This document shows positions 2,012 through 38,727 of a stretch of 58,007 nucleotides of DNA, piece after piece. The stretch is taken from assembly GCA_964387895.1 (NCBI GenBank), contig CAYLWX010000001.1, forward strand, positions 983 through 58,989, given 5' to 3'. A model generated the notes under the pieces. The model had not been told where the DNA came from, searched no databases, and worked only from the letters and a program-made list of their open reading frames with translations. Both the position numbers and the translations under genes were made by a program. The DNA comes from an uncultured Bdellovibrionales bacterium. Lineage in GTDB: Bacteria; Patescibacteriota; Minisyncoccia; Moranbacterales; UBA2206. How positions within the stretch are numbered: position 1 is the first letter of the stretch; each line of letters opens with the position of its first letter.

Positions 2012-3115
2012 ATGGCTAAAAAACCCTTCAATCCGCCAAAATTACCTCCAAAAATTGATTATGAGCCTCTGATTGGTCACATAACCAAAGCGCATCGCGC
2101 TATTGCCAGTTTAGACGCGCTCTTAAGCACATTGCCGAATCCAAGCTTGCTCGGTCGCACTTTGCAAACCAAGGAGGCAGTTTTGAGTTCGCAAATTGAG
2201 GGTACGCAAGCTACGCTGGACGAGGTTTTTAAATACGAAGCTATTAACGATAAAACTGGAAGTGAAAGGAAAAAGCAAGATATCACAGAAATTATTAACT
2301 ATCGTAGAGCGCTGGATTTGGGAATAAAAAATTTGGAGACCTTGCCATTATCAGAAAATCTGATCAAAAAGATTCACGCAATTTTGTTAAAATCTGGACG
2401 TGGCGCAAATAAAGCCCCTGGTGAATTTCGAAAAATTCAAGTTTACATCGGTATGCCCGGCGCTGACATTTCCGAAGCGTCGTATATTCCGCCGACTGCC
2501 GATGAAATTATTCCGCTGTTTTCTAATTTGGAAAAATATCTGAACTCGGATGAAGAAAAAGATAAATTGGTGCAAATTGCAGTGGCACATTATCAATTTG
2601 AAGCCATTCATCCGTTTTTGGACGGCAACGGCCGCGTTGGTCGCTTGATAATTTCCTTATTTTTATATGAGAAAAAACTTCTTTCTCATCCTTTCTTGTA
2701 TTTGAGTGAATTTTTCGAGGAGCATCGCCAAGATTATTATGAACTACTCCGAGGCGTAAGCGAAAAAAATGACTGGGGAAAATGGATTAAATTTTTTCTC
2801 AACGCTTTGACTATTCAAGCGCAAAAAGCGGAAGAAGCAGGCCGATCAATTTTAAAATTGCACCAAGAGCTCAAAGAACAAATCACGGGAATAAACTCGC
2901 AATATGCACCGTATTTATTGGATGCGATTTTCGTGCGTCCAATTTTCACCACATCCAGTTTGCATAAGCATGTGAAAATTAAAAATACCCAGACATTTTT
3001 CAGTTTGATTGCCAAATTTGTCGATGCTGGAATTTTAAAAGAAGTTGACCCGAAACAGAAAAGGAACAAAGTTTACGCATTTGATATGCTTATGAAGATA
3101 TTAAACAAATCATAA
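2012..3115 (+). CDS. fic: Fic family protein (AMPylase-type, with N-terminal Fic_N region)
   Basis: Canonical Fic motif HPFLDGNGRVGR. The N-terminal S-x-x-x-E-G inhibitory-helix motif is present (SSQIEG). The size (367 aa) is typical. Confidence 0.9.
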   Translation: MAKKPFNPPKLPPKIDYEPLIGHITKAHRAIASLDALLSTLPNPSLLGRTLQTKEAVLSSQIEGTQATLDEVFKYEAINDKTGSERKKQDITEIINYRRALDLGIKNLETLPLSENLIKKIHAILLKSGRGANKAPGEFRKIQVYIGMPGADISEASYIPPTADEIIPLFSNLEKYLNSDEEKDKLVQIAVAHYQFEAIHPFLDGNGRVGRLIISLFLYEKKLLSHPFLYLSEFFEEHRQDYYELLRGVSEKNDWGKWIKFFLNALTIQAQKAEEAGRSILKLHQELKEQITGINSQYAPYLLDAIFVRPIFTTSSLHKHVKIKNTQTFFSLIAKFVDAGILKEVDPKQKRNKVYAFDMLMKILNKS

Positions 3116-3188: not shown

Positions 3189-5954
3189 TTAAACCTCCCC
3201 CCAATTCTCCCCCGTCTCAACATTCACCACCAACGGTACTTTTAGCGCGTACGCTTTCTCCATAATTTCTTTCACTTGCTTCGCTACTTCGTCTGCCCTA
3301 TCACTTTTGACTTCCAGAATAATTTCGTCATGCACCTGCAAAAGCATCCGCGCGTCCGGATTGTTTTTGAACGCTTCATACACATGAATCATGGCCAGTT
3401 TCATAATGTCCGCGGAGAGTCCCTGAATAGGCATGTTGATAGCCATGCGTTCGGCGGCGCTGACCAGTTGGAAATTGGATGAATTGATTTCGGGAATATA
3501 GCGGATTCTTCCCATTTGTGTTTCCACATAGCCGTTTTTTCGGGCAAATTGTTTAACCTCTTCCAGATATTTTGCCACGCCGGAAAATTTATTCATATAT
3601 TCTTTGATAAATTTTTCCGCTTCTTCACGCGAAATACCGGCGCTTTGGGAAAAACCGTAAGCACCCATGCCGTAGATAATACCGAAATTTAATTCTTTGG
3701 CCCGATAGCGCATATCATGAGTCACTTCTTCCAGAAGAACCTTATTAATCACCGCCGCGGTCGCGCGATGCACGTCCTCGCCTTTTAAAAATGTTTCGAT
3801 AAGCGCCTCGTCCCCGCTCATATGCGCCATCACCCGAAGATCGATTTGGGAATAATCCGCGCTAACAAGTTTATATCCCTTTTCTGCCACAAATGCCGTG
3901 CGCAAGAGTTGTCCTAAATCGGTTCGAATAGGAATGTTTTGCAAATTAGGATCCGAAGAAGAAAGACGGCCCGTCGCCGTTACCGCCTGGTTGAATTCGG
4001 TGTGGATACGGGAGTTCTCATCCGCCATCACCGGAAGCGTATCAATATAGGTAGTTTTTAACTTGAACAATTCGCGGTAACGTTCGATTTTTTCAATCAC
4101 TTTATGCTCCGACCGGATTTTGGACAATTCTTCCGCCGCGGTGGAATAGCCGGTTTTTATTTTTTTTATTTCATCCGTAGAAATTTTGAGCTTCTCAAAT
4201 AATATCGCGGCAAGCTGGCGTGAAGAGTTAATGTTAAATGTTTCTCCCGTGAGCGTGTAGATAGCTTCTTCCAGGTCTTTAATCTCTTTTTCTATTTTGT
4301 CGGATATACGTATAAACACTTCCGGGTTAAGGGTAACACCGAGCATTTCCATTTTCGCGAGTACGGGAATAAACGGCATCTCCAGATTTCTAAAAACACT
4401 TTCAAGATTGCCCGTATTTTTATCCACTTTTCCATGATGCTTGTCCTGATCTTTGGAAGTTTCTTCTATTCTTTTTTTGTATATTTGTTCCAGGCGTAAA
4501 ATATAATTAGCGCGAATACATGCTTTTCTGGCTGCGTCTCCATCCGATTCGATGCCCAGCGCCAGCTGTCCTTTGCTATTTTCCGCTTCAACTTCTTCCC
4601 CAATTTCCGAAAGCACGATATTTTCAAATTTTAACCGCCCGCCGGAAATTCCGCCCCCCGCGTTCAAAAGATAGGCCGCCAGCATCACGTCAAAAGAAAG
4701 TCCTTGTAATTTTATATTATATTTTTCCAACGCCTGTACTTCATGCTTTAAGTTATACCCGATTTTTCCGACATGCTTATTTTCCAGAACGGGTTTTAGT
4801 TTTTTAAGATTTTCTTCGGCATAAGAAACATACCCCTCGGCAAGTTCACCTTTGACGGAACTGTAAGAAATAGCAATGCCTTGCAAGTCGGCTTTAAAAT
4901 ATTTTTTATTCTCCAACAGCCGTACGTTAAGATGAATGGCAATCTCTTTTTGTTCGGCCAGAATTTTTACGAATGTATCCAGTTCCGCGCCTTCAAAAGA
5001 ATCAACCCGTAGGGGCGACCCTTGCGGTCGCCCTCGTCGGGCGGGCGCAAGACCCTCCCCTGCGGAAATTTTTTTACCGTTTTCCGGAATCCTTTTCACT
5101 AAAGAATTAAACCCTAATTCCTGGAAAATTTTTACCACCTTCTCTCGATCAAAATCTTTGACTACCGCTTTGGAAATATCCAACTCAACCGGGACATCTC
5201 GCACGATAGAAGCCAGTCGTTTACTCATTACCGCGCTATCTCTTCCTTTTTCCAATTTTTCCCGCACAGACGGTTTTAGTTTTGAAAGCGAATCATAAAT
5301 TTCATCCAAAGTTCCATATTCTTTGATCAATTCCACTGCTGTTTTTTCGCCAATACCTTTCACGCCAGGAATATTATCCGACGCGTCCCCTCGTAACGCT
5401 TTAAAGTCAACGAATTGTTCCGGCGTGAGCCCGTAACGCTCCCGGACTAACTTTTCATCATAAAGAACGACATCACTCATCCCTTTTCGAAGCGCGTATA
5501 CTCTTGTTTTCGGACTCACTAATTGCAAGGTGTCCATGTCGCCAGTCACGATAATATTTTCAATCGCTTCTTCGTTCTGTTCTGATTGCGCTACCATGGT
5601 TCCGATTACATCATCCGCTTCAAATCCAGGCGCCTCGCAAATGGGAATATTAAACGCCCGCACTATTTCTTTTATTCTTGCTATCTGCGCGTACAACTCA
5701 TCCGGCGCTTTGACTCTGTGGGCCTTGTATTGTTCATATTCCTCATGGCGAAATGTTTTTCCTGGCAAATCAAAAGAGGCCAGAAGATAGTCCGGGTCAA
5801 GCTCCTTGATCACGCGAAGCAGCACACTCGAGAATCCGTACACCGCGTTTACCAGCTCTCCTTTTTTGGTAGTAAGCGGCGGCAATGCGTGAAACGCCCG
5901 ATGAATAAGCGCGTTTCCGTCAAGAAGAACTAATTTTTTGGGAGTTTTGGCCAT
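3189..5954 (-). CDS. polA: DNA polymerase I (5'-3' exonuclease plus polymerase; central exo-like domain appears degenerate)
   Basis: 921 aa. The N-terminus LLDGNALIHRAFHA...DNIPGVKGIGEKTA is FEN-like. The C-terminus carries family-A motifs (DYSQIDLRV, RYRAKELNFGIIYG, QVHDEIILE). Confidence 0.95.
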   Translation of the reverse strand: MAKTPKKLVLLDGNALIHRAFHALPPLTTKKGELVNAVYGFSSVLLRVIKELDPDYLLASFDLPGKTFRHEEYEQYKAHRVKAPDELYAQIARIKEIVRAFNIPICEAPGFEADDVIGTMVAQSEQNEEAIENIIVTGDMDTLQLVSPKTRVYALRKGMSDVVLYDEKLVRERYGLTPEQFVDFKALRGDASDNIPGVKGIGEKTAVELIKEYGTLDEIYDSLSKLKPSVREKLEKGRDSAVMSKRLASIVRDVPVELDISKAVVKDFDREKVVKIFQELGFNSLVKRIPENGKKISAGEGLAPARRGRPQGSPLRVDSFEGAELDTFVKILAEQKEIAIHLNVRLLENKKYFKADLQGIAISYSSVKGELAEGYVSYAEENLKKLKPVLENKHVGKIGYNLKHEVQALEKYNIKLQGLSFDVMLAAYLLNAGGGISGGRLKFENIVLSEIGEEVEAENSKGQLALGIESDGDAARKACIRANYILRLEQIYKKRIEETSKDQDKHHGKVDKNTGNLESVFRNLEMPFIPVLAKMEMLGVTLNPEVFIRISDKIEKEIKDLEEAIYTLTGETFNINSSRQLAAILFEKLKISTDEIKKIKTGYSTAAEELSKIRSEHKVIEKIERYRELFKLKTTYIDTLPVMADENSRIHTEFNQAVTATGRLSSSDPNLQNIPIRTDLGQLLRTAFVAEKGYKLVSADYSQIDLRVMAHMSGDEALIETFLKGEDVHRATAAVINKVLLEEVTHDMRYRAKELNFGIIYGMGAYGFSQSAGISREEAEKFIKEYMNKFSGVAKYLEEVKQFARKNGYVETQMGRIRYIPEINSSNFQLVSAAERMAINMPIQGLSADIMKLAMIHVYEAFKNNPDARMLLQVHDEIILEVKSDRADEVAKQVKEIMEKAYALKVPLVVNVETGENWGEV
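5007..5065. repeat. GC-rich nested palindromic element inserted in frame in polA
   Basis: Outer stem CCGTAGGGG (5007-5015) ... CCCCTGCGG (5057-5065). Inner perfect hairpin GGGCGACC-cttgc-GGTCGCCC. It encodes the Gly/Pro/Arg-rich linker SAGEGLAPARRGRPQGSPLRV between the 5'-nuclease and the exo-like domain. Confidence 0.7.
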
Positions 5955-7960: not shown

Positions 7961-7970
7961 TTTTTTGTCT

Positions 7971-8066
7971 GAACCACTGATTCGCACTGATTAAACATGA
8001 TTTCACAGATTATACAAAAAATATCAGTGGAATCAGTGTAATCACGTGTTAATCAGTGGTTCTGAT
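7971..8066. repeat. array of inverted (C)ACTGATT / AATCAGT(G) heptamers
   Basis: GAACCACTGATTcgCACTGATTaaaCATGATTtcaCAGATT ... ATCAGTGgAATCAGTGtAATCACgtgttAATCAGTGGTTC. The outer arms GAACCACTGATT and AATCAGTGGTTC are perfect complements. The array spans the ppiB upstream region and the last codons of tsaE. Confidence 0.6.
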
Positions 8067-8486
8067 TATTCTTTTCTCCTCATCCACCCACCGAAACTCA
8101 ATCCACGCCGCGTCAGGCGGAACAATTTTTTTAACTCTGTCCGCCCATTCCACTATAATCACTACATCCTTTTTCTCCCGCGTGGATTTTACCATTTCTT
8201 CCCAGCCCAAATTCAACACATCCCTTGCTTCTATCCGGTAGGCGTCGATATGATAGACTCTTTTTACTGCCCCGACGCTTTTTTTATACTCTTTCATAAT
8301 CACAAACGTCGGACTGGTATACGGCCCTCTCACGCCTAACCCTTTTAAAAAACCCTGCGTGAAGGTTGTTTTTCCCGCGCCTAAATCTCCCACAAGACAA
8401 ATAATCTCCCCGCCGCGGATTTCCCGGGCCAGCATTTCCCCCAGTTGCCGGGTCTGGGTTGAACTGGTAGTGGTAAATTCTTCCAT
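8049..8486 (-). CDS. tsaE: tRNA t6A37 threonylcarbamoyl-transfer complex ATPase TsaE
   Basis: 145 aa. P-loop GDLGAGKTTFTQG followed by SPTF..., a typical YjeE/TsaE size and layout. Confidence 0.9.
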   Translation of the reverse strand: MEEFTTTSSTQTRQLGEMLAREIRGGEIICLVGDLGAGKTTFTQGFLKGLGVRGPYTSPTFVIMKEYKKSVGAVKRVYHIDAYRIEARDVLNLGWEEMVKSTREKKDVVIIVEWADRVKKIVPPDAAWIEFRWVDEEKRIIRTTD

Positions 8487-9399: not shown

Positions 9400-9687
9400 T
9401 TAATTTCCTAATAACCTTTCCAGCCTCTCCCGCTCTTCCTGGTATATCGCGTCCAGCATAGCCTGTCCTTTCTCCTCATCGGCGGCCAATGCCTGGAAAG
9501 CTTCTTTTTTTCTTTTATACGCGTCGTTTAGCCATTCCAACTCACCGGGAAACGCGGTAAGAAATTCATACGTGCCGGAAATAAAATTATCGGGCGAAGC
9601 GCCGACAATAAGTTCCCATTCCTTCTTGTCTTCCTGCCCCAGAAGACTGTTCTGGATAAGTTGGATAAGGTTTTGTTTTTGGTTCAT
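9400..9687 (-). CDS. hypothetical protein
   Basis: 95-aa ORF lying 13 nt upstream of, and co-directional with, 8589-9386. On the minus strand TGcTATACT lies 9 nt upstream of the ATG. Confidence 0.6.
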   Translation of the reverse strand: MNQKQNLIQLIQNSLLGQEDKKEWELIVGASPDNFISGTYEFLTAFPGELEWLNDAYKRKKEAFQALAADEEKGQAMLDAIYQEERERLERLLGN

Positions 9688-9720
9688 AGTAGTTATAGTA
9701 TAGCATTTTTAAGACAAAAG

Positions 9721-9751
9721 GTCAAAGATGACAAGCAAGTCAAAGATGACA
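9721..9751. promoter_or_regulatory. two perfect 13-nt direct repeats GTCAAAGATGACA in a divergent intergenic region
   Basis: Copies at 9721-9733 and 9739-9751 (18-nt period). Each contains the inverted half-sites GTCA-n4-TGAC. A further TTGACA lies at 9752-9757. Confidence 0.45.
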
Positions 9752-9814
9752 TTTGACACTCTTAACCAATATGCTACATTGAAATATCGAATCTAAATCT
9801 TACCCTATACGCCT

Positions 9815-10945
9815 ATGAGCCTCGCGCCACAAGAACAGTTCAAAAAATTTCTGGAGAACTCCAAGGAGGTTCTCCTCTTTATTCCTGAAAACCCAAGCGG
9901 AGACGCCATAGGAAGCGCGTGGGCGCTTTATTTTTTTTTAGAGAAGCGGGGTATTTTACCTACCATCGCGTTTTCGCATACGGTGCCTCAAAAATATTCC
10001 TTTCTTCCCCAGCCAGTGAATATTTGCAGCGAGATTTCCGGCGCGAGAGATTTTGTGCTTTCTTTTGACACCTCGCGCAATAAAATTATCAACATCCGTT
10101 CGGAAGAAAAAGACAATCAGTATAATATCTACCTCACTCCCGAAAAAGGCTCTATTGACCCAAAAGACTTCTCTTTTATTCTGGCTAATTTTAAGTATGA
10201 CCTTCTTATCGTGCTGGACTCCCCGGACTTGGAACGCCTGGGCAAGTTGTATGAAGCTAATCCTGACTTATTTTTCGAAATTCCCATTATTAACATAGAC
10301 CACAAAAGCACCAATGAGAATTTCGGCCAGATTAATCTTGTCGACGTCATGGCTTCTTCCACCAGTGAAATACTTTCCCATATATTCGAGTCTGTGGATT
10401 CGTCCCTGATTGATGATAAAATATCCAGCTGTCTTTTAACCGGAATTATAAGCGCGACTGACAGTTTCAGGAAAAAGAACACGACCCCCCGCACGCTCCT
10501 TGCCGCCGCCGCGATCATGGATAAAGGCGCGAGCCAGCAGGAAATTATCCGCTGGCTTTATAAAACCCAGCCTCTTAATATTCTAAAGCTCTGGGGCCGC
10601 GTCATGGCGAAATTGAAATGGGATGAGGAACTGCGTCTGGTATGGTCCGAACTCACTATAGAAGATTTTGTACAAAGCCGGTCTACTCCGGAACATATTA
10701 CCTCTATCCTGGAAAAGCTCCAGGAAAATTACAGTGAAGGAAGGATATTTATGACGCTTTATGGCGCCACGCCGACTTCTGTCATGGTGCACATAAAAAC
10801 ATCCAACCCCGATGTAGCTAAAAAAATTCACGCTCACTTAGGCGGTACTATTCAAAGGGAACTTTTAGAACTTAGTTTCGAATCAGACAACATCTCGGAA
10901 ACAAGCCGGATGATTCTGCAAAAAATAAAAGAGATCGAGCTTTAA
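9815..10945 (+). CDS. DHH-family phosphoesterase (NrnA-like) with a variant DHH motif
   Basis: SGDAIGSAWAL, LLIVLDSPD, IINIDHKSTN (DHK in place of DHH) and GIISATDSFR blocks appear in the order expected for DHH/DHHA1 proteins. Confidence 0.7.
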   Translation: MSLAPQEQFKKFLENSKEVLLFIPENPSGDAIGSAWALYFFLEKRGILPTIAFSHTVPQKYSFLPQPVNICSEISGARDFVLSFDTSRNKIINIRSEEKDNQYNIYLTPEKGSIDPKDFSFILANFKYDLLIVLDSPDLERLGKLYEANPDLFFEIPIINIDHKSTNENFGQINLVDVMASSTSEILSHIFESVDSSLIDDKISSCLLTGIISATDSFRKKNTTPRTLLAAAAIMDKGASQQEIIRWLYKTQPLNILKLWGRVMAKLKWDEELRLVWSELTIEDFVQSRSTPEHITSILEKLQENYSEGRIFMTLYGATPTSVMVHIKTSNPDVAKKIHAHLGGTIQRELLELSFESDNISETSRMILQKIKEIEL

Positions 10946-14501: not shown

Positions 14502-14957
14502 TTAATCTATCTTTTCAAGCAAGGCTATTATTTTTTCCGAGTATTTTTTGTATAAATCCACGATGATTTGTATGTTTCTCTTTGACCAAATTAAATACAC
14601 GTTCACGTCGTAGGAATGCACTATTTCATTGCGAAAACTTACCGAGTCAATTAGTGTTTTTAGATCTTCTTCCCCCAGCGCAAGCTCTTCTTTTTTTAAA
14701 ATTTTGTGCTCTAAATCCCGGAATGATTGTTTGCTACTCCATGGTTTTTCTCCCGCCACGCCCTCCAAAATAAATTCATTCACGTCAATCGCGCAATCCA
14801 CGAGTTCCTGAATTATTTTTTCCACGTATTTTAAATCTTTCGGACGGTCTTTTAATTCTTCAACAGAAACCGCGTCATATTCCTTGAGCGATTCCATGTG
14901 TCCAGTTAAAAATTCAAGCTTTTTCCGAATAAGATCTTTGTCCATGGTATTATTCAT
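14502..14957 (-). CDS. hepT: HepT-like HEPN (DUF86) toxin of a type VII toxin-antitoxin pair
   Basis: R-x4-H HEPN motif RNEIVH near the C-terminus. 151 aa. Its start overlaps the stop of the upstream nucleotidyltransferase gene by 8 nt. Confidence 0.85.
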   Translation of the reverse strand: MNNTMDKDLIRKKLEFLTGHMESLKEYDAVSVEELKDRPKDLKYVEKIIQELVDCAIDVNEFILEGVAGEKPWSSKQSFRDLEHKILKKEELALGEEDLKTLIDSVSFRNEIVHSYDVNVYLIWSKRNIQIIVDLYKKYSEKIIALLEKID

Positions 14958-15366
14958 TTAACGCGTTAATTCTTTTCTTTAGTAAATTTTCTCTTCCATA
15001 AAAAAAACGCCGGTTGTCCTCGTAAGTAAACCTGGCCCAGGATTTTATCTCCGGCCATTTTTTTTTATTTTTAATATAAAGGGGCTTGCCGTAATAAAAA
15101 ATATGGTAGAGTAATAAAGGGTTTTCGCTGGATATCGGCACTACTTCGATTTCTCTTTTTTCCATGTCTTCCGCTTCCATGAGATCAAAATTGAAATTGG
15201 AAAATTCTTTTTCATAGAACGTCGGATCAGACGGCAAAATCGCGATATCGATATCGCTTTTTTCGCGCATTGTTTCTTTCGCGGCACTCCCGAAAAGCAT
15301 GACTAATTTTAAATCATACTTCTCCGCCAAACGTTCAATGGATTTTTTAGTTTCAGATTTAAGCAT
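14950..15366 (-). CDS. mntA: MntA-like minimal nucleotidyltransferase antitoxin
   Basis: LFGSAAKETMREKSDIDIAIL matches the G-S-x(n)-D-x-D pol-beta NTase motif. The start is moved from the GTG at 15438 to the ATG at 15366, because the GTG-extended N-terminus runs through a perfect hairpin. Confidence 0.85.
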   Translation of the reverse strand: MLKSETKKSIERLAEKYDLKLVMLFGSAAKETMREKSDIDIAILPSDPTFYEKEFSNFNFDLMEAEDMEKREIEVVPISSENPLLLYHIFYYGKPLYIKNKKKWPEIKSWARFTYEDNRRFFYGRENLLKKRINALNE

Positions 15367-15406
15367 AACCGTAGTATAGCTCCAAAGAAAATTTTTCGCA
15401 ATTTTA

Positions 15407-15430
15407 AAGGGAGCCCGGTTTGGCTCCCTT
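15407..15430 (-). terminator. perfect 9-bp hairpin, possible terminator of an upstream minus-strand RNA
   Basis: AAGGGAGCC-cggttt-GGCTCCCTT. On the minus strand it is followed by TAAAATT. Confidence 0.4.
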
Positions 15431-15444
15431 ATAACCACACTAAT

Positions 15445-20828: not shown

Positions 20829-20890
20829 TTTTAGTTGATTAGTTACGTAGTTATATGAAATATGCTTTTCTTTTTACGGCTAACGCCTTA

Positions 20891-20921
20891 CACTTTTCTA
20901 TAATGAACAAATTTTATTTTT
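20891..20921. repeat. left inverted repeat of the island
   Basis: CACTTTTCTATAATGAACAAATTTTATTTTT. Its reverse complement, AAAAATAAAATTTGTTCATTATAGAAAAGTG, matches 24268-24298 apart from 2 mismatches. Confidence 0.85.
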
Positions 20922-20996
20922 AATTATTTGAGGGGGTATGTGGTGTTTTCTTCCGCTTCGCTCCAGAAAACGATTTATTTATAATTTTTTAAAAGC

Positions 20997-21002
20997 TATA
21001 AT
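20997..21002 (+). promoter_or_regulatory. -10 box TATAAT 6 nt upstream of the methyltransferase ATG
   Basis: TATAAT at 20997-21002, spacer CAAGAT, ATG at 21009. No SD. A second TATAAT lies at 20980-20985. Confidence 0.45.
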
Positions 21003-21008
21003 CAAGAT

Positions 21009-21755
21009 ATGTCGGATATAACAAAATTCATAAACAAAATAATCTGCGGGGATACGGTTGAAATAATGAAAAAAATGCCGGACGGATCGGTTGATTTAAT
21101 TGTGACTTCACCACCTTATAACCTTAAAAACTCTACTGGCAATGGTATGAAAGACGGCCGAGGCGGAAAATGGGCAAATGCCGCTTTGCAAAAGGGCTAC
21201 TCACATTACAACGATAATATGCCACACAAAGAATATGTTAAGTGGCAAAGAAATTGTCTCACGGAAATGATGAGATTGATTCCTGAAGATGGAGCAATTT
21301 TTTACAATCATAAATGGCGCGTTCAAGCTAATTTATTACAAGATCGCCAAGATATTGTGAGTGGGTTACCCGTCCGTCAAATTATTATTTGGAGACGTGC
21401 CGGTGGACTGAATTTTAATGCTGGTTATTTTTTGCCCACTTATGAAGTAATCTATTTAATTGCTAAACCAAAATTCAAACTTGCGCCGAAAGCAAACGCT
21501 TACGGCGACATTTGGGAAATACCACAAGAAATGAAAAACGGACATCCAGCACCTTTTCCTGTTAAACTCATTGACCGGATAATTTCATCAACGAACGCAA
21601 AAATTATTTTAGATCCATTCATGGGTTCTGGAACAACTGCTATATCAGCAATAAATTTTAATCGTAATTATATTGGGATTGATATTTCTCCGGATTATTG
21701 TGAGTCAGCAAAAAAAAGGATAAAACAACATCAATCGCAAGCTAAACTTTTATAA
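21009..21755 (+). CDS. beta-class DNA methyltransferase (N4-cytosine or N6-adenine), type II R-M
   Basis: Motif IV DLIVTSPPYNL is near the N-terminus and motif I ILDPFMGSGTT near the C-terminus, which is beta-class order. Partnering with a BcnI/MvaI-like nuclease suggests m4C. Confidence 0.9.
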   Translation: MSDITKFINKIICGDTVEIMKKMPDGSVDLIVTSPPYNLKNSTGNGMKDGRGGKWANAALQKGYSHYNDNMPHKEYVKWQRNCLTEMMRLIPEDGAIFYNHKWRVQANLLQDRQDIVSGLPVRQIIIWRRAGGLNFNAGYFLPTYEVIYLIAKPKFKLAPKANAYGDIWEIPQEMKNGHPAPFPVKLIDRIISSTNAKIILDPFMGSGTTAISAINFNRNYIGIDISPDYCESAKKRIKQHQSQAKLL

Positions 21756-21757
21756 CT

Positions 21758-22552
21758 ATGACAGATCAAATTATCTACACAAAACCGGCTCTAATCGAAA
21801 AGTTGAAAGAAATTTCTGCAATGAGATTTGTGCCAAACGCGCGAAAAGGAAATGCCGGAGGTATCGGCAACACTCTTGAAGATTTACTTGGAATTAAGGA
21901 AAACAACCTACCAATCCCAAACGCCGCCGAATGGGAATTGAAAGCTCAACGTTTGAATTCAACATCTCTCACGACACTTTTTCATATTGAGCCCTCGCCA
22001 CGAGCAATCCGCTTTGTACCGCAAGTTTTATTACCTTTTTACGGCTGGGCACACCAAGAAGATGGCAAAAAATATCCAAAAGGCGAAATGAGTTTCCGAC
22101 AAACTATTCACGGCAATTCATGCAGTGATCGTGGCTTTAAGGTTGTCATTGATCGTAAGGAGCGAAAAATTTTAATTTCGTTTGATTCAAAATGCGTAGA
22201 CAAAAGGCACAAAAAGTGGCTACAACAAGTTAAAAAGCATGTTGGCCTTAGTGAATTAAATCCACAACCATATTGGGGCTTTGATGATTTAGAGCATAAA
22301 GCCGGAACAAAACTACTCAATGCCTTTTACGTACAGGCAGAAGTAGAAATCAGGCGCAAAAAAGAATTTTATCACTATACAAAAGTAATGATGTTACAGA
22401 AGTTTAGTTTTGAAGGATTTTTAAAAGCATTGGGGGAAGGTAAAATTCTCGTGGATTTTGACGCACGCACTGGTCATAATCACGGAACAAAATTTAGAAT
22501 GAGGCAGGATTGTTTGCCTATGCTTTACGAAAAACAATCAATAATAATTTAA
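21758..22552 (+). CDS. type II restriction endonuclease, MvaI/BcnI-like
   Basis: Blocks GNTLEDLLGIKENNLPIPNAAEWELKAQR...SLTTLFHIEPSP and EFYHYTKVMML...VDFDARTG..HGTKFRM match my recollection of BcnI (GQILERQFGVQENN..GEFELKG..LTLFH; FHFTKAYML; RGPHLRI). It lies 2 nt downstream of the MTase. Confidence 0.7.
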   Translation: MTDQIIYTKPALIEKLKEISAMRFVPNARKGNAGGIGNTLEDLLGIKENNLPIPNAAEWELKAQRLNSTSLTTLFHIEPSPRAIRFVPQVLLPFYGWAHQEDGKKYPKGEMSFRQTIHGNSCSDRGFKVVIDRKERKILISFDSKCVDKRHKKWLQQVKKHVGLSELNPQPYWGFDDLEHKAGTKLLNAFYVQAEVEIRRKKEFYHYTKVMMLQKFSFEGFLKALGEGKILVDFDARTGHNHGTKFRMRQDCLPMLYEKQSIII

Positions 22553-22568
22553 TAATATTTAAAAACAT

Positions 22569-23597
22569 ATGAGCAAAATTGATCTAATTAAAAAAATCGA
22601 AGCAAAAAGAAATTCAAAAGTAATAACCTATTTAACAAGCGACCGGCCGGGTCCTCTTAACGCAAAAATTGCTGGCGACATTATACCAATAATTAGTCAA
22701 CAACTACGAAAAATTGGCAAGGTTGAAAATATTGATTTATTTATTTTCAGCCAAGGTGGCGATACTATGGTTCCATGGCGATTAGTTTCCATGATAAGAG
22801 AATACTGCACTAAATTTTCTGTTTTAATTCCTTACAAAGCACACAGCTCCGCAAGCATGATTTCTCTAGGTGCCGACGAAATTGTAATGACGGATTTATC
22901 AGAAATTTCACCGATTGACCCGTCAACTGCAAATATTTTTAATCCTAGCGACCCACAAAATCCTCAAAATAAAATTCCGATTTCAGTAGAGGATGTTATG
23001 GCTTATTTTGATTTAGTAAAAAATAAATTTGGAATTAAAAATGACGAGGATTTAACTAAAATATTTAATAAGTTTGTGGAATCAAATCCGCAGATACACC
23101 CGTTAGCGCTCGGGAACGTTAACCGTACCCACAATTTAATTAGAGTTCTCGCAAAAAGATTGCTTAAGAGCCACAATAGCCCTATAGCAGAAAATGTAAT
23201 AGAAAAAATCGTGGATAACTTAACAGAAAAACTTTATTCACATCAATATTACATAGGTAGAAAAGAGGCAAAAAATGATTTAAAAATTGACACTGTCGTT
23301 TTTGCGGATGACGAAACATCAAGATTATTAAGTGATCTGTATGAAGAATACCGAAAGGAAATGGGCCTAAATATAACAAGTTGGAGTCCTGAAGTAGAAT
23401 TAGGCACCGGAACCGCCCAGATTAAAAAAGACTATAAAATTGCTTACATTGAAAGCGTTGAACTATCAAACTATTTTCAGCTATCTATTGAATACAAAAA
23501 ACAACAGGTTAATATAACACAGCCAACACCACAAGGACCGATTCAAGTTCCACAAGAACAAATCGGATTTAGAATTGTTGATCAAGGCTGGAAATAA
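22569..23597 (+). CDS. SDH-family (serine dehydrogenase proteinase, ClpP/SppA fold) serine protease with an unassigned C-terminal half
   Basis: NIDLFIFSQGGDTMVPW...LIPYKAHSSASMISLGADEIVMTDLSEISPIDPS parallels the family blocks (hTpGG; AmSaGTliALaaDeIvM; LGPIDP). Residues from about 190 to 342 match nothing I recognise. Confidence 0.75.
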   Translation: MSKIDLIKKIEAKRNSKVITYLTSDRPGPLNAKIAGDIIPIISQQLRKIGKVENIDLFIFSQGGDTMVPWRLVSMIREYCTKFSVLIPYKAHSSASMISLGADEIVMTDLSEISPIDPSTANIFNPSDPQNPQNKIPISVEDVMAYFDLVKNKFGIKNDEDLTKIFNKFVESNPQIHPLALGNVNRTHNLIRVLAKRLLKSHNSPIAENVIEKIVDNLTEKLYSHQYYIGRKEAKNDLKIDTVVFADDETSRLLSDLYEEYRKEMGLNITSWSPEVELGTGTAQIKKDYKIAYIESVELSNYFQLSIEYKKQQVNITQPTPQGPIQVPQEQIGFRIVDQGWK

Positions 23598-23608
23598 CAG
23601 AAAGTTAT

Positions 23609-24210
23609 ATGGTTAATTTTTTAAACTCAGGTTTTTTCACAGGCTTAGCAACAATATTAACTGCGATTGTAGCAATTTTTTTGTATTACTGGGAGCAACG
23701 AAAAAAGAAACGAGACGCTGCAAAAATAATCATTCAGGAAATAAGAAGAGCCGAAGATTTAATCAGCGAATACAAAGAATGTGGCGGGTATAAATTTACA
23801 AAAAAAATAATTGCAACAAATAGCTGGGCGAAAATATTCATTATTTTGTTGGCGATTTAGCACAAGACGAGGTAGATAAAATAAGTACCTTGTATTCAAC
23901 TGGCGAATACCTTGATACCATAATTGCAAAAGTATCAGATCACGCTTTTGATGAACAGGTAAAATCATACGAAAGCGAAATTAAACAAATTGTTGCCGGA
24001 CTCCAAAATCCTATAACGAGCCAGCAGTCAACATCTAGCGGCGATCAATCGGGCGCTCAAGTAATCCCCAAAATTGTGCAAAGAGCAGTACCTGTAAAAA
24101 TTCAAATACCGCCGCCATGGAAAATATTATTAGACGAAATATCTTTTAATTACGAGCCGATTTATCATTCAAGTATTTGTGAAAAATTGAAAAAAATTGG
24201 CAAGATATAA
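23609..24210 (+). pseudogene. membrane-anchored hypothetical gene interrupted by a frameshift at an A-run
   Basis: ORF 23609-23860 (frame 2, N-terminal TM) and ORF 23890-24210 (frame 1) form one reading unit. Frame 1 is already open from 23824 and overlaps the end of frame 2. One extra A in GCGAAAATATT (about 23829-23834) would read ...ATNSWAKNIHYFVGDLAQDEVDKISTLYSTGEY... Confidence 0.6.
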
Positions 24211-24223
24211 AATTCCAATAAGG

Positions 24224-24268
24224 TGTCTTGGCTTCGGGGCATTCACCCCCAGCCCCTACGCCAAGACA
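24224..24268. repeat. GC-loop hairpin (GGGCATTCACCCC family)
   Basis: Stem TGTCTTGGC (24224-24232) / GCCAAGACA (24260-24268). The loop contains GGGGCATTCACCCCCAGCCCCT. It lies immediately inside the right IR. Confidence 0.65.
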
Positions 24269-24298
24269 AAAATAAAATTTGTTCATTACAGGAAAGTG
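24268..24298. repeat. right inverted repeat of the island
   Basis: AAAAATAAAATTTGTTCATTACAGGAAAGTG. It is followed by the short palindrome GTTCCG-ctaaga-CGGAAC. Confidence 0.85.
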
Positions 24299-24434
24299 GT
24301 TCCGCTAAGACGGAACAAATATAATATATGCCGATACGTTAAATAGAAAACTATGAAAACATTTCTCTTTCCTATTCAACCAGTCAATCGCCTTGAGTTT
24401 CAATATTCAAAATGATAGTATTAGTTTGAGATAA

Positions 24435-34334: not shown

Positions 34335-35492
34335 TTAATTTTTAATTGGCATGACAATATAGAGATAATCCCCTAAAACTTCTCCTGTTTCTTCGTTGAT
34401 TTCCCGCAATGCTACAGGAGTAGATTCACTGTTCACCAATAACGCTACTTTTGAAGTGGCAATATTATTAATCCCGTCCAGGAGATATTTTGAATTAAAT
34501 ACCACTTTTTGCGAAGGTCCCGTTATATCCGCTTCCATTTCTGATACATTTTCTCCTATTTCAGAACTGTGTACCTGAATAATAACTTTCTTCTTTTCAC
34601 TATGTATCTCAAGACTAATCTCACTAGTCTTGCCGGTAGTAAAAAATCCAGCCATTTTCACCGCTCCCTGAATAAAACTTTTCTCTATCACTGCCCTTGT
34701 TTTAAATTCCTGGGGTACAATATGCTTATACTCAGGATATTTCCCATTAATAAGTCTGGAAATAATAGTAGTTCCTGGAATTTCAAAAAATATTTGTCCT
34801 TCTTCAATCGCTACTTTTACTTTCCCTTCTTCATCTCCTGAAATTATCCGGTTTAATTCCATTAAAGTAACTGCCGGAATAATAATATTTTCTGTTTTTT
34901 CTCTTAATGCGGTATATCTCTCTTCATTTACCTCATCTTTTCCTAAATTAATTCGGTTTTCAGAAAGCCGAAAGCTGTCTGTAGAGGCAAAAAATATCTC
35001 CCGTTCTTTTAATACCACATTTATCCCCGTGAGTTCCTGTCTGGATTCATGAAATGCCACGGAAACCATTATTTTAGTAATAATTCTTTTTAGATCATTT
35101 GCGGATAACTGAAATTGAAAATCAGTACTTTTATGTGGAATTAAGGGAAAATCAGACGCAGAAAGCCCTTTAATCACTGCTTTAATGGATCCACTTTTTA
35201 TTTTTAAATTTTGATCTATTACCTCCAAAGTAATATTTTCCCCCACAGGAAGGTTGTTTATTACATTACTAATTAATTTCGCCGGAATAGTAATTTTACC
35301 TTCTTTTTCCACTTTTGCGCCTATATGCGCTATTACTCCCATTTCAAGATTAGTCGCGGATAAAGTTAAGCCTTTTTTATCCGCTTCAAAAAGAATATTA
35401 TTTAAAATCGGCAAGGTAGTTTGCTTGGACACTACTTTTTCTGAATTAAATATTGCTCGCTTAAAATTTTCCTGAGTACAGATAAGATGCAT
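34335..35492 (-). CDS. dnaN: DNA polymerase III beta sliding clamp
   Basis: 385 aa. It lies downstream of dnaA and has the typical start MHLICTQENFKRAI...LPILNNILFE. Confidence 0.95.
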   Translation of the reverse strand: MHLICTQENFKRAIFNSEKVVSKQTTLPILNNILFEADKKGLTLSATNLEMGVIAHIGAKVEKEGKITIPAKLISNVINNLPVGENITLEVIDQNLKIKSGSIKAVIKGLSASDFPLIPHKSTDFQFQLSANDLKRIITKIMVSVAFHESRQELTGINVVLKEREIFFASTDSFRLSENRINLGKDEVNEERYTALREKTENIIIPAVTLMELNRIISGDEEGKVKVAIEEGQIFFEIPGTTIISRLINGKYPEYKHIVPQEFKTRAVIEKSFIQGAVKMAGFFTTGKTSEISLEIHSEKKKVIIQVHSSEIGENVSEMEADITGPSQKVVFNSKYLLDGINNIATSKVALLVNSESTPVALREINEETGEVLGDYLYIVMPIKN

Positions 35493-35772
35493 AGATATAA
35501 AATTAATTAATAACTAATTTATATAAGTAGATTATTATTACTAGCAAGGAACACTTCTGGGGATATCTCAATAAAATGGCTTAGGGTACACATTACTTGC
35601 TTAAATATCTGTGGATAACTCCTGAATTATCCAATGATGAGCTTCTTAATGGTATGTGGGCAGGGGGAGTAATTATATGAGCGGGTAAGATTATCCAAGT
35701 TTACTACCAGGGAATAGAAGAGGTTATCTACAAGGTTATTCTAGGGGTAACACACTCTTTATCCACATGTTA
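35493..35772. other. probable oriC (dnaA-dnaN intergenic region): AT-rich unwinding segment plus DnaA boxes
   Basis: Perfect DnaA boxes are TGTGGATAA (35610-35618) and TTATCCACA (35759-35767). One-mismatch boxes are TTATCCAAT (35627-35635), TTATCCAAG (35691-35699) and TTATCTACA (35724-35732). A very AT-rich tract lies at 35493-35550. Confidence 0.7.
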
Positions 35773-37152
35773 TCAACTTATGGCGTATAACTGTTCTCTG
35801 AGAAAGGAAACTTCTTCGGAGAGTTTTTTGTCATGCTCTAATTCTTTGTTTATTTTTTCAAACGCATGGATAGCCGTGGTGTGGTCTCTTCCTCCCATTT
35901 TTTCTCCTATTCCGGGGTAGGAATAGTGAAGTTCACTCCTCATAAGATACATGGCGATTTGCCGAGGACGGACTATTTCTTTTTTTCTTCCTTTAATAAC
36001 CAGTTCATCCTGGGTAATTTCGTAAAAATCGGAAACTAGTTTAATGATGTGTTTATGGGTTATTCCCTTCTTTTTTCCGCTTGAAATGAGCTCAGAAAGG
36101 AGGTTTTCCACAAAATGAAGAGTAATTTCCTTTTGAGCAAGTTGCGCGGAAACGGAAATTCTATTTAAGGCTCCTTCCAGCTCTCGAATGTTATTGGTAA
36201 TATTAGATGCCAGGAAATCAATTACGTCGTCTCCTATACGCAGATTTTCCTCTAATGATTTTTTCCTTAAAATGGCCATTCTTGTTTCCAGATCAGCCCT
36301 GGATACGTCGGCGATCATTCCTCCCTCAAAACGTGAGCGGAGACGTTCTTCCAGGGTCGGGATAGCCTTAGGAGGACGGTCGCTACTAAGCACTACTTGT
36401 TTATTGAGCTGGTAAAGATGGTTAAAAATATGAAAAAATTCTTCCTGGGTCTTTTCTTTTCCGGATAAAAACTGTACGTCGTCGATAATTAAGAGGTCGA
36501 TTGTTTGATAATACTCCTTAAATTCATGTATTTTCTGATTTTTTATTGAATCAACCAGGTCCTTGGTAAACCTCTCGGAAGTAATATAACGTACTCGGCA
36601 GGAAGGATTTTTCAGAAGCACTTCGTTGCCTATGGATTGAAGCAAATGAGTCTTCCCTAAGCCCACTCCTCCATAGATAAAAAGAGGATTATAGCTTTTT
36701 CCCAGGTTTTGAGACACGGCATAGCACGCGGCTCTTGCCAGCTCATTACTGCTCCCTATAACAAAATTTTGGAAGGTATATTTAGGGTTAAGGTTGTTTT
36801 CCTGGTTGATACTAAAGTTTCTTCCTGCCGCGACGCGAGGTTCTAAAAGAGGTTTTCTTGAGGAAGTTACTGCGTCAACAGAGGGTTTTCTTGCTGCGTC
36901 TTCCTGATGAACCACCAGCGCGCAGGAGACTTCCCGGATCTCCGGATTATTATGGTGAAGCGCCTTAAGAATGTAGAGATTGTACTTATTTTCAAGCCAT
37001 TCTTTGGCGAATCCATTAGGAACTCCTATAACAACTTTTCCTTCCGTTATTGATAAAATGGAGGTGTTTTTAAACCATGTGATAAAATTGGCCTTTGAAA
37101 TAGAAAGCTCAATTTCCCCCAGCGCCGCGTGCCAAAGCTCTTCGTTAGTCAT
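35773..37152 (-). CDS. dnaA: chromosomal replication initiator protein DnaA
   Basis: GGVGLGKTHLL Walker A, LLIDDVQF, and the C-terminal domain IV (VRPRQIAMYLMR...GGRDHTTAIHA). Confidence 0.97.
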   Translation of the reverse strand: MTNEELWHAALGEIELSISKANFITWFKNTSILSITEGKVVIGVPNGFAKEWLENKYNLYILKALHHNNPEIREVSCALVVHQEDAARKPSVDAVTSSRKPLLEPRVAAGRNFSINQENNLNPKYTFQNFVIGSSNELARAACYAVSQNLGKSYNPLFIYGGVGLGKTHLLQSIGNEVLLKNPSCRVRYITSERFTKDLVDSIKNQKIHEFKEYYQTIDLLIIDDVQFLSGKEKTQEEFFHIFNHLYQLNKQVVLSSDRPPKAIPTLEERLRSRFEGGMIADVSRADLETRMAILRKKSLEENLRIGDDVIDFLASNITNNIRELEGALNRISVSAQLAQKEITLHFVENLLSELISSGKKKGITHKHIIKLVSDFYEITQDELVIKGRKKEIVRPRQIAMYLMRSELHYSYPGIGEKMGGRDHTTAIHAFEKINKELEHDKKLSEEVSFLREQLYAIS

Positions 37153-37228
37153 AGAAGGAAGGATGTTAAAAAATAGAGATATTACTGCCGAAGTATACCA
37201 TATCGAAAAATATTGAGTAAGGTAAAAT

Positions 37229-37249
37229 TGTGGATAAACCTGTTGATAA
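37229..37249. promoter_or_regulatory. DnaA boxes upstream of dnaA
   Basis: TGTGGATAA (37229-37237, perfect) and TGTTGATAA (37241-37249, one mismatch). Confidence 0.6.
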
Positions 37250-37415
37250 CCTGTGGGTTCCTCTTATTATTATATAATACAAAAAGTAATTATGATCAAG
37301 TGGCTCTTTTTGATTGACTTTTAACCGTGTAGTTGGTACACTTTTAAATAGTTAAATTTTAAGCGGGGGCTACAGGCCGTCTCGGCAGAAGTTATAAGAT
37401 TAGCCAAAAAATAGT

Positions 37416-37550
37416 ATGAGTCAAACATATCAGCCTAAAAAAAAGAGACGAAAAAAAAGACACGGATTTATAAAAAGAAGCCGCACGCAGGACGGGAGAA
37501 ATGTGTTGAAAAGAAGACGGCGCAAGGGCAGGAAAAAACTTACGGCATAA
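37416..37550 (+). CDS. rpmH: 50S ribosomal protein L34
   Basis: Not in the ORF track (44 aa): [44 protein letters not shown]. It sits in the canonical position before rnpA. Confidence 0.9.
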
Positions 37551-37561
37551 AGACGCATTCC

Positions 37562-37930
37562 ATGTTACCTTTTAAAAACAGATTAACGAAAAAGAAGGAT
37601 TTTGAGAGAGTACAAAGGGGTGGAACGTTCTTTTCTGATGGCAATATTGCCGTCAAAATAAGCAAAAACGACTTAAGGGAGACCAGGGTAGGAATTATTG
37701 TAGGGGTAAAGTTTTCCAAAAAAGCAACAGAAAGAAACCAGGCAAAGAGATGGCTCCGTGAAATTTTTCAAAGAGAAATGAGGCGCTTAAGGAAGGGAGC
37801 GGATATTGCTGTTATGGTGAGAAGAAGAGATAAGGAACCATTGCGCCTGAGGGAAGTAACTAAAAATGTCGTGCGTGTGCTTGAGAAAAGCCGCCTTTTT
37901 GAACCAGGAGAGGCGCGCACACGCGAGTAA
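37562..37930 (+). CDS. rnpA: ribonuclease P protein component
   Basis: 122 aa and basic. It follows rpmH and precedes yidC, with the LTKKKDFERV start. Confidence 0.9.
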   Translation: MLPFKNRLTKKKDFERVQRGGTFFSDGNIAVKISKNDLRETRVGIIVGVKFSKKATERNQAKRWLREIFQREMRRLRKGADIAVMVRRRDKEPLRLREVTKNVVRVLEKSRLFEPGEARTRE

Positions 37931-37941
37931 ACCTTATAGTT

Positions 37942-38727
37942 ATGTCGTTTTTATTCCATGAACTTATCTATCGTCCGTTGTATAATGTGCTTATTTTTAT
38001 CTATAACGCGCTTCCTTTTGACGATTTCGGGATCGCGATTATAGTGGTTACCTTGCTTTTAAAATTAGTGCTGATTCCTTTAAGTAAGAAACAGATTGAA
38101 TCCCAGAAAAAAATGCAGGCATTACAGCCTAAGATAAAGGAAATTCAGGAAAAATATAAAAAAGACAAGGAAAAACAGAGCCGGGCGCTTATGGAATTGT
38201 ATAAGACTTCTAAAACCAACCCCTTTGCGGGATGCGTGCCTATTATAGTGCAGCTGGTGTTTTTAATCGCTATTTACAGAGTTCTTTTTAATATATCTAC
38301 CGCCGGTCTGGTGGTGAACCCGGGAGATTTATATTCTTTCGTTAGAAATCCAGGGCAGATAAACCAATTTTTCATGGGTATTATTAGTTTATCCTCGGCA
38401 GTTGACGTAAAGCATATCGCTTTAGCTAATGTGCCGCAAGTGTTGTTGATCTTCGCGGCAGCTTTTTCTCAGTATATCCAAATGAAAATGATGATGGATA
38501 AAATGCCCGCGGGTGCGGGAGCGAAGGAAAGTGATTTCGCGCAAATAATGTCGAAACAGATGCTCTACCTCGGGCCGGTGCTTACTCTGGTGATAGGGTT
38601 TCAATTTCCTTCGGGAGTCGCGCTGTATTGGCTTGTTTCCACGGTGTTTATGATAGTACAACAGTATTATTTACAAAAAAACGCGCCTCCCGCGAAGACA
38701 CGCGCCAGCCAGGTGCTAAATGACTAA
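37942..38727 (+). CDS. yidC: YidC/Oxa1-family membrane protein insertase (short form)
   Basis: LIPLSKKQIESQKKMQALQPKIKEIQEKYKKDKEKQSRALMELYKTSKTNPFAGCVP is the family signature. Confidence 0.92.
   Translation: MSFLFHELIYRPLYNVLIFIYNALPFDDFGIAIIVVTLLLKLVLIPLSKKQIESQKKMQALQPKIKEIQEKYKKDKEKQSRALMELYKTSKTNPFAGCVPIIVQLVFLIAIYRVLFNISTAGLVVNPGDLYSFVRNPGQINQFFMGIISLSSAVDVKHIALANVPQVLLIFAAAFSQYIQMKMMMDKMPAGAGAKESDFAQIMSKQMLYLGPVLTLVIGFQFPSGVALYWLVSTVFMIVQQYYLQKNAPPAKTRASQVLND

Follow-up and report, generated by a model that had tools for sequence, protein, structure and literature searches.

The DNA analysed here, called the window throughout, is a stretch of 58,007 nucleotides (nt) from an uncultured bacterium of the Patescibacteriota (contig CAYLWX010000001.1, positions 983 to 58,989), and our subject is a four-gene island within it that carries the gene of a ClpP-fold serine protease. 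The island consists of four co-directional open reading frames (ORFs) at 21009-21755, 21758-22552, 22569-23597 and from 23609 onwards, and the ORF map confirmed the gaps of 2, 16 and 11 nt that a first-pass annotation had read between them. The restriction-modification (R-M) pair recognised upstream of the protease is also real. The first gene (21009..21755, plus strand) encodes a type II N4/N6 DNA methyltransferase of 248 amino acids (aa) that matches PF01555 (E 1.5e-41) and the PADLOC family MTase_II (E 1.7e-117, 391.7 bits), and the adjacent one (21758..22552, plus strand) an MvaI/BcnI-family type II restriction endonuclease of 264 aa that matches PF15515 (E 2.6e-64) and REase_II (E 7.9e-83, 276.2 bits). 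The protease gene (22569..23597, plus strand; 342 aa) is the third and a gene described as its membrane-anchored partner the fourth. On the plus strand, no intrinsic terminator is predicted between the island genes, save one within the methyltransferase ORF, and a stable hairpin (24224..24268, plus strand) lies just 3' of the last gene (fold of 24205-24310: -29.2 kcal/mol, z = -3.05). The GC content of the island is 0.356, as compared with 0.417 in the rest of the window. Upstream, the island is flanked by genes for a secreted protein with a lamin-tail domain and for a 198-aa protein, and downstream by yebC-ruvC. Rfam and tRNA scans of the window gave no match, hence no tRNA attachment site. 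A search for empty sites that would define the borders yielded no island-free allele; the 198-aa upstream protein had no relative in the metagenome collection, and the closest YebC relatives in this search were merely 55% identical.

The assignment of the third gene product to the serine dehydrogenase proteinase (SDH) family, with a ClpP fold, held up. Pfam PF01972 (SDH_protease) scored 48.2 bits against a gathering score of 31.3 (E 1e-12), in a partial alignment that places residues 3-142 on profile positions 37-181 of 286, and the motifs quoted for the protein are found at residues 61-65 (SQGGD), 91-107 (AHSSASMISLGADEIVM) and 114-118 (SPIDP). Its best PHROG family is phrog_11747, an unannotated phage family that covers nearly the full length of the protease (residues 6-272, E 7e-38), and a sequence search against the Protein Data Bank (PDB) found no matching chain. 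With the NCBIfam equivalog NF047768, 'SDH family Clp fold serine proteinase', the protein reached 50.9 bits, below the cut-off of 250 bits. Five relatives, including those of E. coli, Klebsiella and Pseudomonas, also failed this model (53-78 vs 250 bits). Given that the window protein and its relatives fall so far below the cut-off, we file them, on sequence grounds, as a distinct subfamily of about 335-345 aa within the SDH branch of the ClpP/SppA-fold superfamily. A full scan of 1.84 billion representative proteins, at E<1e-30, returned 406 clusters, most of which align with the protease end to end. Therefore, the C-terminal part belongs to the family. The first-pass annotation had left about 150 residues there without assignment; the stretch exists, and it is not a foreign addition, being conserved to its end and carrying an invariant histidine, His225. 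Fused domains were considered for longer members (400-500 aa) and rejected, the extensions being low-complexity sequence or over-called ORFs. In P0121, a relative with 70% identity, residues 186-267 of the helical domain weakly resemble the NCBIfam 'FFLEELY motif protein', scoring 24 bits where the cut-off is 55.

In an alignment of 40 representatives, with identities down to 34%, ten residues are invariant: Gly63, Gly64, Ser93, Glu141, Pro178, Leu181, Gly182, Arg186, His225 and Trp341. When the proteobacterial clade was added (51 sequences), Ser93, Asp117, Glu141, Arg186, His225, Trp341 and the Gly63-Gly64 pair were invariant, Asp117 being at least 90% conserved in the smaller alignment. The conserved residues in these alignments thus occur in the order Ser-Asp-His (93, 117, 225). 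Lys90 varies across the family, and an SppA-type Ser-Lys dyad is therefore unlikely. Judged by these residues, the protein looks catalytically competent, and it presumably acts as a protease in vivo. In the AlphaFold model (pLDDT 86.7, pTM 0.83), residues 1-118 form a ClpP-like alpha/beta core, which a loop of low confidence (119-139) connects to a helical domain (140-280); this domain bears His225 and is followed by a C-terminal three-stranded beta-sheet (284-341). Searched with Foldseek against the PDB, the model retrieved SppA and ClpP (E about 2e-5, probability 1.0, TM-score up to 0.65 to ClpP). Better matches came from BFVD, namely giant-virus 'serine dehydrogenase proteinases' (E 3e-11, TM-score 0.5-0.66), and phage head proteases were far poorer than these. 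The predicted structure is accordingly that of a ClpP/crotonase-like fold. The protein is cytoplasmic and soluble, with neither a signal peptide nor a transmembrane (TM) segment.

The protease shares with PF01972 (formerly DUF114; NF047768) the ClpP/crotonase core, the GG oxyanion motif and the nucleophilic serine, its conserved residues follow one another in the order Ser-Asp-His, and its best structural matches are annotated as SDH proteinases. It differs in being about 80 aa longer, in its own helical domain and in a C-terminal beta-sheet that ends in the invariant tryptophan. We found no experimentally defined role for the PF01972 family. SppA (S49) and ClpP (S14) have the same fold by Foldseek. 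However, SppA uses a Ser-Lys pair, and the window protease lacks the membrane targeting of that enzyme. In ClpP the order is Ser-His-Asp, whereas here the conserved histidine lies about 130 residues after the serine, and no ClpX or ClpA gene is nearby. Operons of the NfeD/STOPP-stomatin and SppA-YteJ types resemble the island in that a gene for a ClpP-fold protease is followed by one for a membrane-anchored protein, and some proteobacterial relatives give a sub-threshold match to NfeD1b_N (26-28 bits, cut-off 40). The island departs from those operons in its soluble protease and in a partner that shows no SPFH/stomatin or YteJ-like fold and whose place beside the protease is not fixed.

The fourth gene had been described as a single ORF of about 190 aa with an N-terminal TM helix. 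The helix is present, but the reading frame is split between frames 2 and 1. The 5' part (23609..23860, plus strand, frame 2) is an 83-aa ORF that carries the TM helix and the first half of the conserved domain and ends at the frameshift, and the 3' part (23824..24210, plus strand) is open throughout in frame 1. DNA alignment with the two nearest relatives, L122 (98% identical) and L001 (91%), locates the frameshift to 23831..23834 on the plus strand, where a run of four A stands in place of five. Since the relatives read GCGAAAAAT and the window GCGAAAAT, one A of the run is missing at this site. The lesion falls in the most conserved motif of the partner family, NSWAKNIH. With the nucleotide restored, the gene product is 200 aa long and matches P0271, a database protein of the same length, at 99% identity. 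The deletion is either a true pseudogene mutation or a homopolymer assembly error. Programmed frameshifting was rejected, there being no X XXY YYZ heptamer at the site and a plain continuous ORF in the relatives, as was transcriptional slippage, for which the A run is too short. If the deletion is taken as inactivating, the R-M pair and the protease are the only intact genes of the island. In the AlphaFold model of the restored protein (pLDDT 79.9), the TM helix runs into long helices that form a conserved helical domain, followed by a disordered linker rich in Q, S and P (about 135-164) and by conserved C-terminal helices. A fold search of the PDB gave nothing significant for the partner (best E 0.67); it has no Pfam match, and neither half matches a PADLOC family at E up to 0.1.

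We then considered what surrounds this protease elsewhere. Neighbouring genes were clustered by BLAST at 81 loci, mostly from Patescibacteria, where the protease is 68-97% identical, and the enrichment test refers to this clade and to our own ORF calls. DNA methyltransferase homologues made up 25 of the 561 genes at offsets 1-4 from the protease and 1 of the 615 at offsets of six or more (odds ratio 29, Fisher p 1.4e-7), and a methyltransferase lies within four genes of the protease in 25 of the 81 loci. Pfam scans compared 150 random genes within three positions of the protease with 150 random genes six or more positions away. The near sample contained N6_N4_Mtase (8 genes), HNH (3), GmrSD_N, Mrr_cat, NA-iREase1, AAA_21/AbiEii-like, MazE and RadC domains (2 each), together with DpnII, EcoRI methylase, HSDR_N and PIN_8. 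In the far sample we found housekeeping families and a few ResIII/DEAD helicases. The suspected enrichment near defence genes was thus recovered, for R-M, type IV restriction and toxin-antitoxin domains alike. Together with the prophage accessory slots described below, this local enrichment supports an association of the protease with defence islands. The first-pass annotation knew of no named defence system built on this family, and indeed no family of PADLOC-DB 2.0.0 matched the protease at E up to 0.1. Our literature search found no paper in the library covered that ties the SDH family to defence; matches to 'DUF114' were discarded as false prefix matches to DUF1145 and DUF1149.

The explanation that we favour, with a probability of roughly 0.45, is that the gene may encode a single-gene phage-defence protease. 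The protease, which presumably acts alone in phage exclusion, would be an exclusion or abortive-infection factor and would, upon infection, cleave either an essential host protein or a late or assembly protein of the phage. In Patescibacteria it resides within variable islands rich in R-M systems, and in Proteobacteria it is a lone prophage gene that a lysogen would express.

The homologues of Proteobacteria and phages are 32-46% identical and stand as lone genes in prophage accessory slots. That of E. coli (WP_044064371, 39.5% identical) occurs in 47 of 5426 complete genomes, and each of the three contexts inspected shows it as a solitary gene of a lambdoid prophage, on the opposite strand and flanked by the antiterminator Q and a lambda-type holin. 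Its clade numbers over 4000 proteins from across the Proteobacteria. In a Pseudomonas prophage, the homologue directly follows a cI-like S24 repressor gene and is divergent from cro; in Raoultella/Klebsiella, a lone homologue lies at the prophage edge, beyond the tail-fibre genes. Such slots are classic places for exclusion or defence genes expressed in the lysogen, as exemplified by lambda rexAB and P22 sie. From such a 'moron' slot, a lysogen would express the homologue. On 23 IMG/VR contigs, the neighbours are DNA methyltransferases, NinB, repressors, DinI, UmuD-like proteins and integrases, with a large terminase at the border of the module. In six prophage contigs (L109, L110, L114, L116, L119 and L120, at about 7970-8150), a conserved low-complexity ORF of 55-61 aa with many T, Q, S and N residues begins at the homologue's 3' end, and a C5 DNA methyltransferase gene (about 620 aa) comes next on the opposite strand.

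The phage context also bears on the idea that the protein is a stranded or degenerate head-maturation (prohead) protease of a decayed prophage. Weak matches to phrog_1684 (E 1e-7) and to NF045542 (35.8 bits, cut-off 120) point in this direction, but the PHROG head-protease matches span just about 70 residues around the serine, whereas the best family, the unannotated phrog_11747, is matched over nearly the whole protein. A location in head-morphogenesis modules, which would have spoken against a defence role, was not seen: no portal, capsid or scaffold gene is adjacent in the window, the 81 loci or the 23 viral contigs, and none of these families is among the 25 most frequent PHROGs around the homologues on those contigs. 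Moreover, the prophages that carry the homologue have their own structural modules elsewhere. We consider this origin scarcely credible.

Returning to single-gene defence, known exclusion genes occupy comparable places: lambda rexAB follows cI, P22 has sieA/sieB, and BstA lies by the repressor (PMC10883804 and general knowledge). The homologues resemble them in their lysogen-expressed slots (after a cI-like repressor, in the Q-lysis gap, at the prophage end), but are related to none of them in sequence or fold, and none of those proteins is a ClpP-fold protease. The working model, a protease of a defence island with a host or phage target, or a neighbouring effector, as its substrate, is that of the Lit metalloprotease, the IetS subtilase (IetAS), CHAT/caspase-like proteases, Lon-like CRISPR-associated proteases and gasdermin-activating proteases. 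The window protease differs from these in fold and catalytic type, in having no consistently linked ATPase, sensor or gasdermin-like partner, and in lacking a PADLOC match.

The first-pass annotation had proposed a protease working with a membrane-anchored partner. The +1 gene was surveyed at 76 loci. It is co-directional with the protease and within 60 nt of it in 58 of them, and it is drawn from at least 16 unrelated families. The partner family of the window is the commonest; with N-terminal fragments included, it occupies 13 of 76 loci and is spaced -35 to +40 nt from the protease gene. The other families comprise DUF6941 (8 loci), further families with an N-terminal TM segment (DUF6680 among them), a soluble family of 200 aa that precedes a toxin-antitoxin pair of the PIN type, a Cys-rich protein, Bro-N-like proteins and many singletons. 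No family of PADLOC-DB 2.0.0 matched any of ten alternative +1 genes at E <= 0.01. Of the four partner homologues that were looked up, two lie directly behind a protease and have a type III R-M system or DpnI beside them; the other two, P0353 and P0343, have no protease nearby, and one of them adjoins genes for a Schlafen-type helicase, MazG and RadC. The fixed pair of protease and membrane partner is therefore not supported. Three further kinds of neighbour recur at these loci. RadC-like JAB genes are frequent upstream of the protease (9 loci). Four unrelated loci, one of them on a 2.4 Mb genome from outside the candidate phyla radiation (CPR), have the protease next to a gene for a class II-type ribonucleotide reductase of about 800-1280 aa, which is directly upstream in L004, L035 and L052 and at +4 in L029. 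A three-gene block, encoding a soluble protein of 200-220 aa, one of about 90 aa and one of 160-185 aa that is PIN-like by eye, recurs in L021, L037, L043 and L055 at +1 to +3 or -3 to -1 relative to the protease.

These data weigh on an obligate two-gene abortive-infection module, with the protease as effector or activator and the membrane protein as sensor or pore. The frequency of the partner family at +1 and the two homologues found directly behind a protease speak for it, as does the architecture of the partner, whose TM anchor is combined with a disordered linker (135-164) that could hold a cleavage site. Yet the number of unrelated +1 families and the partner homologues that occur on their own are hard to reconcile with an obligate pair, and TM proteins are not enriched behind the protease (38% at +1 and 34% at +2, background 34-43%). 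Homologues stand alone in E. coli, Klebsiella and Pseudomonas prophages, and likewise on non-CPR contigs of 2 Mb, and the partner is frameshifted in the window itself. In addition, the two proteins diverge without correlation, the proteases having a median pairwise identity of 77% and the partners at the same loci one of 41.5%. A module of this kind is thus doubtful, and we give it only a slim chance. Under single-gene defence, the +1 gene would be interchangeable island cargo and at most an optional accessory.

The distribution of the gene is that of a mobile trait. A word-indexed search found 1893 relatives of the protease, and the top 120 clusters, 73-97% identical, came mostly from metagenome-assembled genomes (MAGs) of Patescibacteria. 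A pattern-based scan of GTDB with a 10-sequence alignment covered 185,579 species genomes, one per species, and gave 229 hits, all of them relatives that keep both search peptides. The best 80 hits are 68-97% identical and spread across many classes of Patescibacteria; Smithella, Nitrospirae, Omnitrophota, Bacteroidota and a deltaproteobacterial contig of 2.09 Mb are represented among them as well. Another homologue, 80% identical, is on a 2.4 Mb contig of a flagellated bacterium. The copies in non-CPR phyla are 70-80% identical to the window protease, and those on the 2.1-2.4 Mb non-CPR contigs are lone genes. Four MAGs have two copies, 77-92% identical to each other and with different neighbours for each copy. 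Altogether, the protease behaves as an autonomous accessory gene that moves horizontally.

A housekeeping role in protein quality control, within the hrcA-grpE-dnaK-dnaJ heat-shock regulon and with defence genes merely inserting alongside, has to be weighed against this pattern. In 14 of the 81 loci, grpE is upstream of the protease, often directly, and dnaK/dnaJ is downstream; the sequence is very strongly conserved, and the ClpP fold is typical of proteostasis enzymes. On the other hand, the majority of loci lie outside that operon. The gene is present twice in some MAGs and absent from most, as the number of hits in the GTDB scan illustrates, and the high identity to non-CPR copies together with the proteobacterial prophage slots fits a transferred accessory gene. 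Moreover, unrelated cargo separates the protease from dnaK, including, in L018, a DUF262-HNH restriction enzyme in the same grpE-dnaK gap. Such cargo argues for an insertion hotspot rather than a functional link, and the gap looks like a site of island insertion into the heat-shock operon. We regard the housekeeping role as very improbable. Insertions of this kind into the hrcA-grpE-dnaK-dnaJ operon are seen, for example, in L005-L007, L014, L018, L036, L044, L050 and L075, at about 8-15 kb of each locus.

The borders of the window island are marked by repeats. A conserved non-coding leader precedes the island (20850..21008, plus strand); over some 145-165 nt, it shares about 90% identity with the sequence that precedes another R-M pair in L001. 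Within the leader is the left arm (20891..20921, plus strand, with a TATAAT hexamer) of a 31-nt inverted repeat (IR); the right arm (24268..24298, minus strand) is 94% complementary to it. The arms lie just outside the first and last island genes, and this repeat occurs in two copies in the whole window and in none of the shuffled sequences. The window and L001 have in common the leader (about 90% at the nucleotide level, with the left arm) and the protease-partner segment (91%), whereas their R-M systems differ, MvaI in one and DpnII in the other. With L002, the window shares the R-M pair and the protease (83.5% at the nucleotide level), and the downstream genes differ. From these shared and unshared segments it follows that homology breaks at the edges of the protease gene. 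Under the favoured explanation, the island would be a low-GC four-gene cassette whose parts are swapped by recombination at the edges of this highly conserved gene.

Other protease islands are also bounded by IRs: 116 nt in L010 (182-296 / 4699-4814), where the 5-kb contig is essentially the element, about 90 nt in L056 (about 1196-1285 / 5049-5149), and 289 nt with 98.6% identity in L067 (5015-5302 / 9678-9966). The repeats of the window, L010, L056 and L067 are unrelated to one another, but each island has the protease and its follower close to the right arm, on its inner side. None of the four cassettes encodes a recombinase. The IR-bounded islands may be invertible or mobile cassettes. The inverted repeats that flank L027, L028, L072, L016 and L053 were discounted, being multi-copy repeats, hairpins or artefacts of contig ends.

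Two further explanations were considered. In the first, the protease serves the mobile element, as an anti-defence, addiction or R-M control factor that would, for example, break down defence proteins of the host, or remove the restriction enzyme whenever methylation falls behind, in the manner of the restriction alleviation of E. coli, where ClpXP degrades HsdR. The carriage of the gene on prophages and IR-bounded cassettes would suit such a factor, as would the RadC-like genes upstream and the gene order methyltransferase-endonuclease-protease, co-operonic with R-M, in the window, L001, L002, L010 and L056. However, most loci have no adjacent R-M system, and the prophage slots are lysogen-expressed, which is typical of exclusion genes and not of early anti-defence genes. 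The nearby methyltransferases are also paired with restriction enzymes, and are therefore parts of true defence systems rather than orphan anti-restriction methylases. We hold a service to the element to be possible, though unlikely.

In the second, the ultra-conserved protease would be a constant 'trigger' that activates the variable +1 protein by proteolysis, much as a gasdermin is activated by its protease, in swappable cassettes. The IRs (31-289 nt in the window, L010, L056 and L067) would let the cassette invert or move, with the protease gene as the recombination anchor. High conservation combined with tight linkage to a variable +1 gene keeps a constant activator under consideration, but we would not put its chances above those of the obligate two-gene module.

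Several observations weigh against our proposal of a single-gene defence protease. We infer the defence function from neighbouring genes, that is, from guilt by association, and 56 of the 81 loci have no methyltransferase within four genes. The ORFs of the loci come from a crude longest-ORF caller. A median identity of 77% is unusual for defence genes, which normally diversify. The tight linkage of the +1 gene at 58 of 76 loci leaves room for a system made of a conserved protease and a variable second component, and the 14 loci with grpE and dnaK/dnaJ neighbours hint at a role in proteostasis.

Besides the island, the window contains other features. At 34335-38727, dnaN and dnaA on the minus strand are followed by rnpA and yidC on the plus strand, and the GC skew switches sign at around 36-37 kb; the gap at 37.15-37.56 kb, about 13 kb from the island, probably holds the replication origin. 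A HEPN/MNT toxin-antitoxin module (14502-15438, minus strand), which lies in a low-GC stretch (0.36), consists of a HepT-like RNase (PF01934) and an MNT-type nucleotidyltransferase (PF18765). A Fic/DOC protein is encoded at 2012-3115 (plus strand), and Fic genes are also near the protease in four other loci. An ORF6N-domain protein (53997-54521) and a VirB4/TraG-like P-loop ATPase (50948-52519) are encoded on the minus strand. The Fic/DOC, ORF6N and VirB4/TraG-like genes suggest that the window holds further mobile or conflict-related genes.

Few defence systems have been identified in Patescibacteria (PMC12366544). Our results indicate that a single highly conserved protease gene marks variable, R-M-rich islands of these bacteria, and the homologues in prophages of E. 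coli, Klebsiella and Pseudomonas make the hypothesis directly testable in laboratory strains. Should no protection be found, the protease would still be a useful marker for new cargo of CPR islands, with at least 16 unannotated families of followers. Were the protease to act as a constant trigger, a new organisational principle of Patescibacteria defence loci would emerge. Protease-based immunity and prophage exclusion genes are already known, and a ClpP-fold SDH protease in that role would be new. If it does protect against phages, a ClpP-fold Ser-Asp-His protease would join the short list of protease-based immunity mechanisms, and a family of several thousand proteins, named by fold alone, would gain its first biological role.

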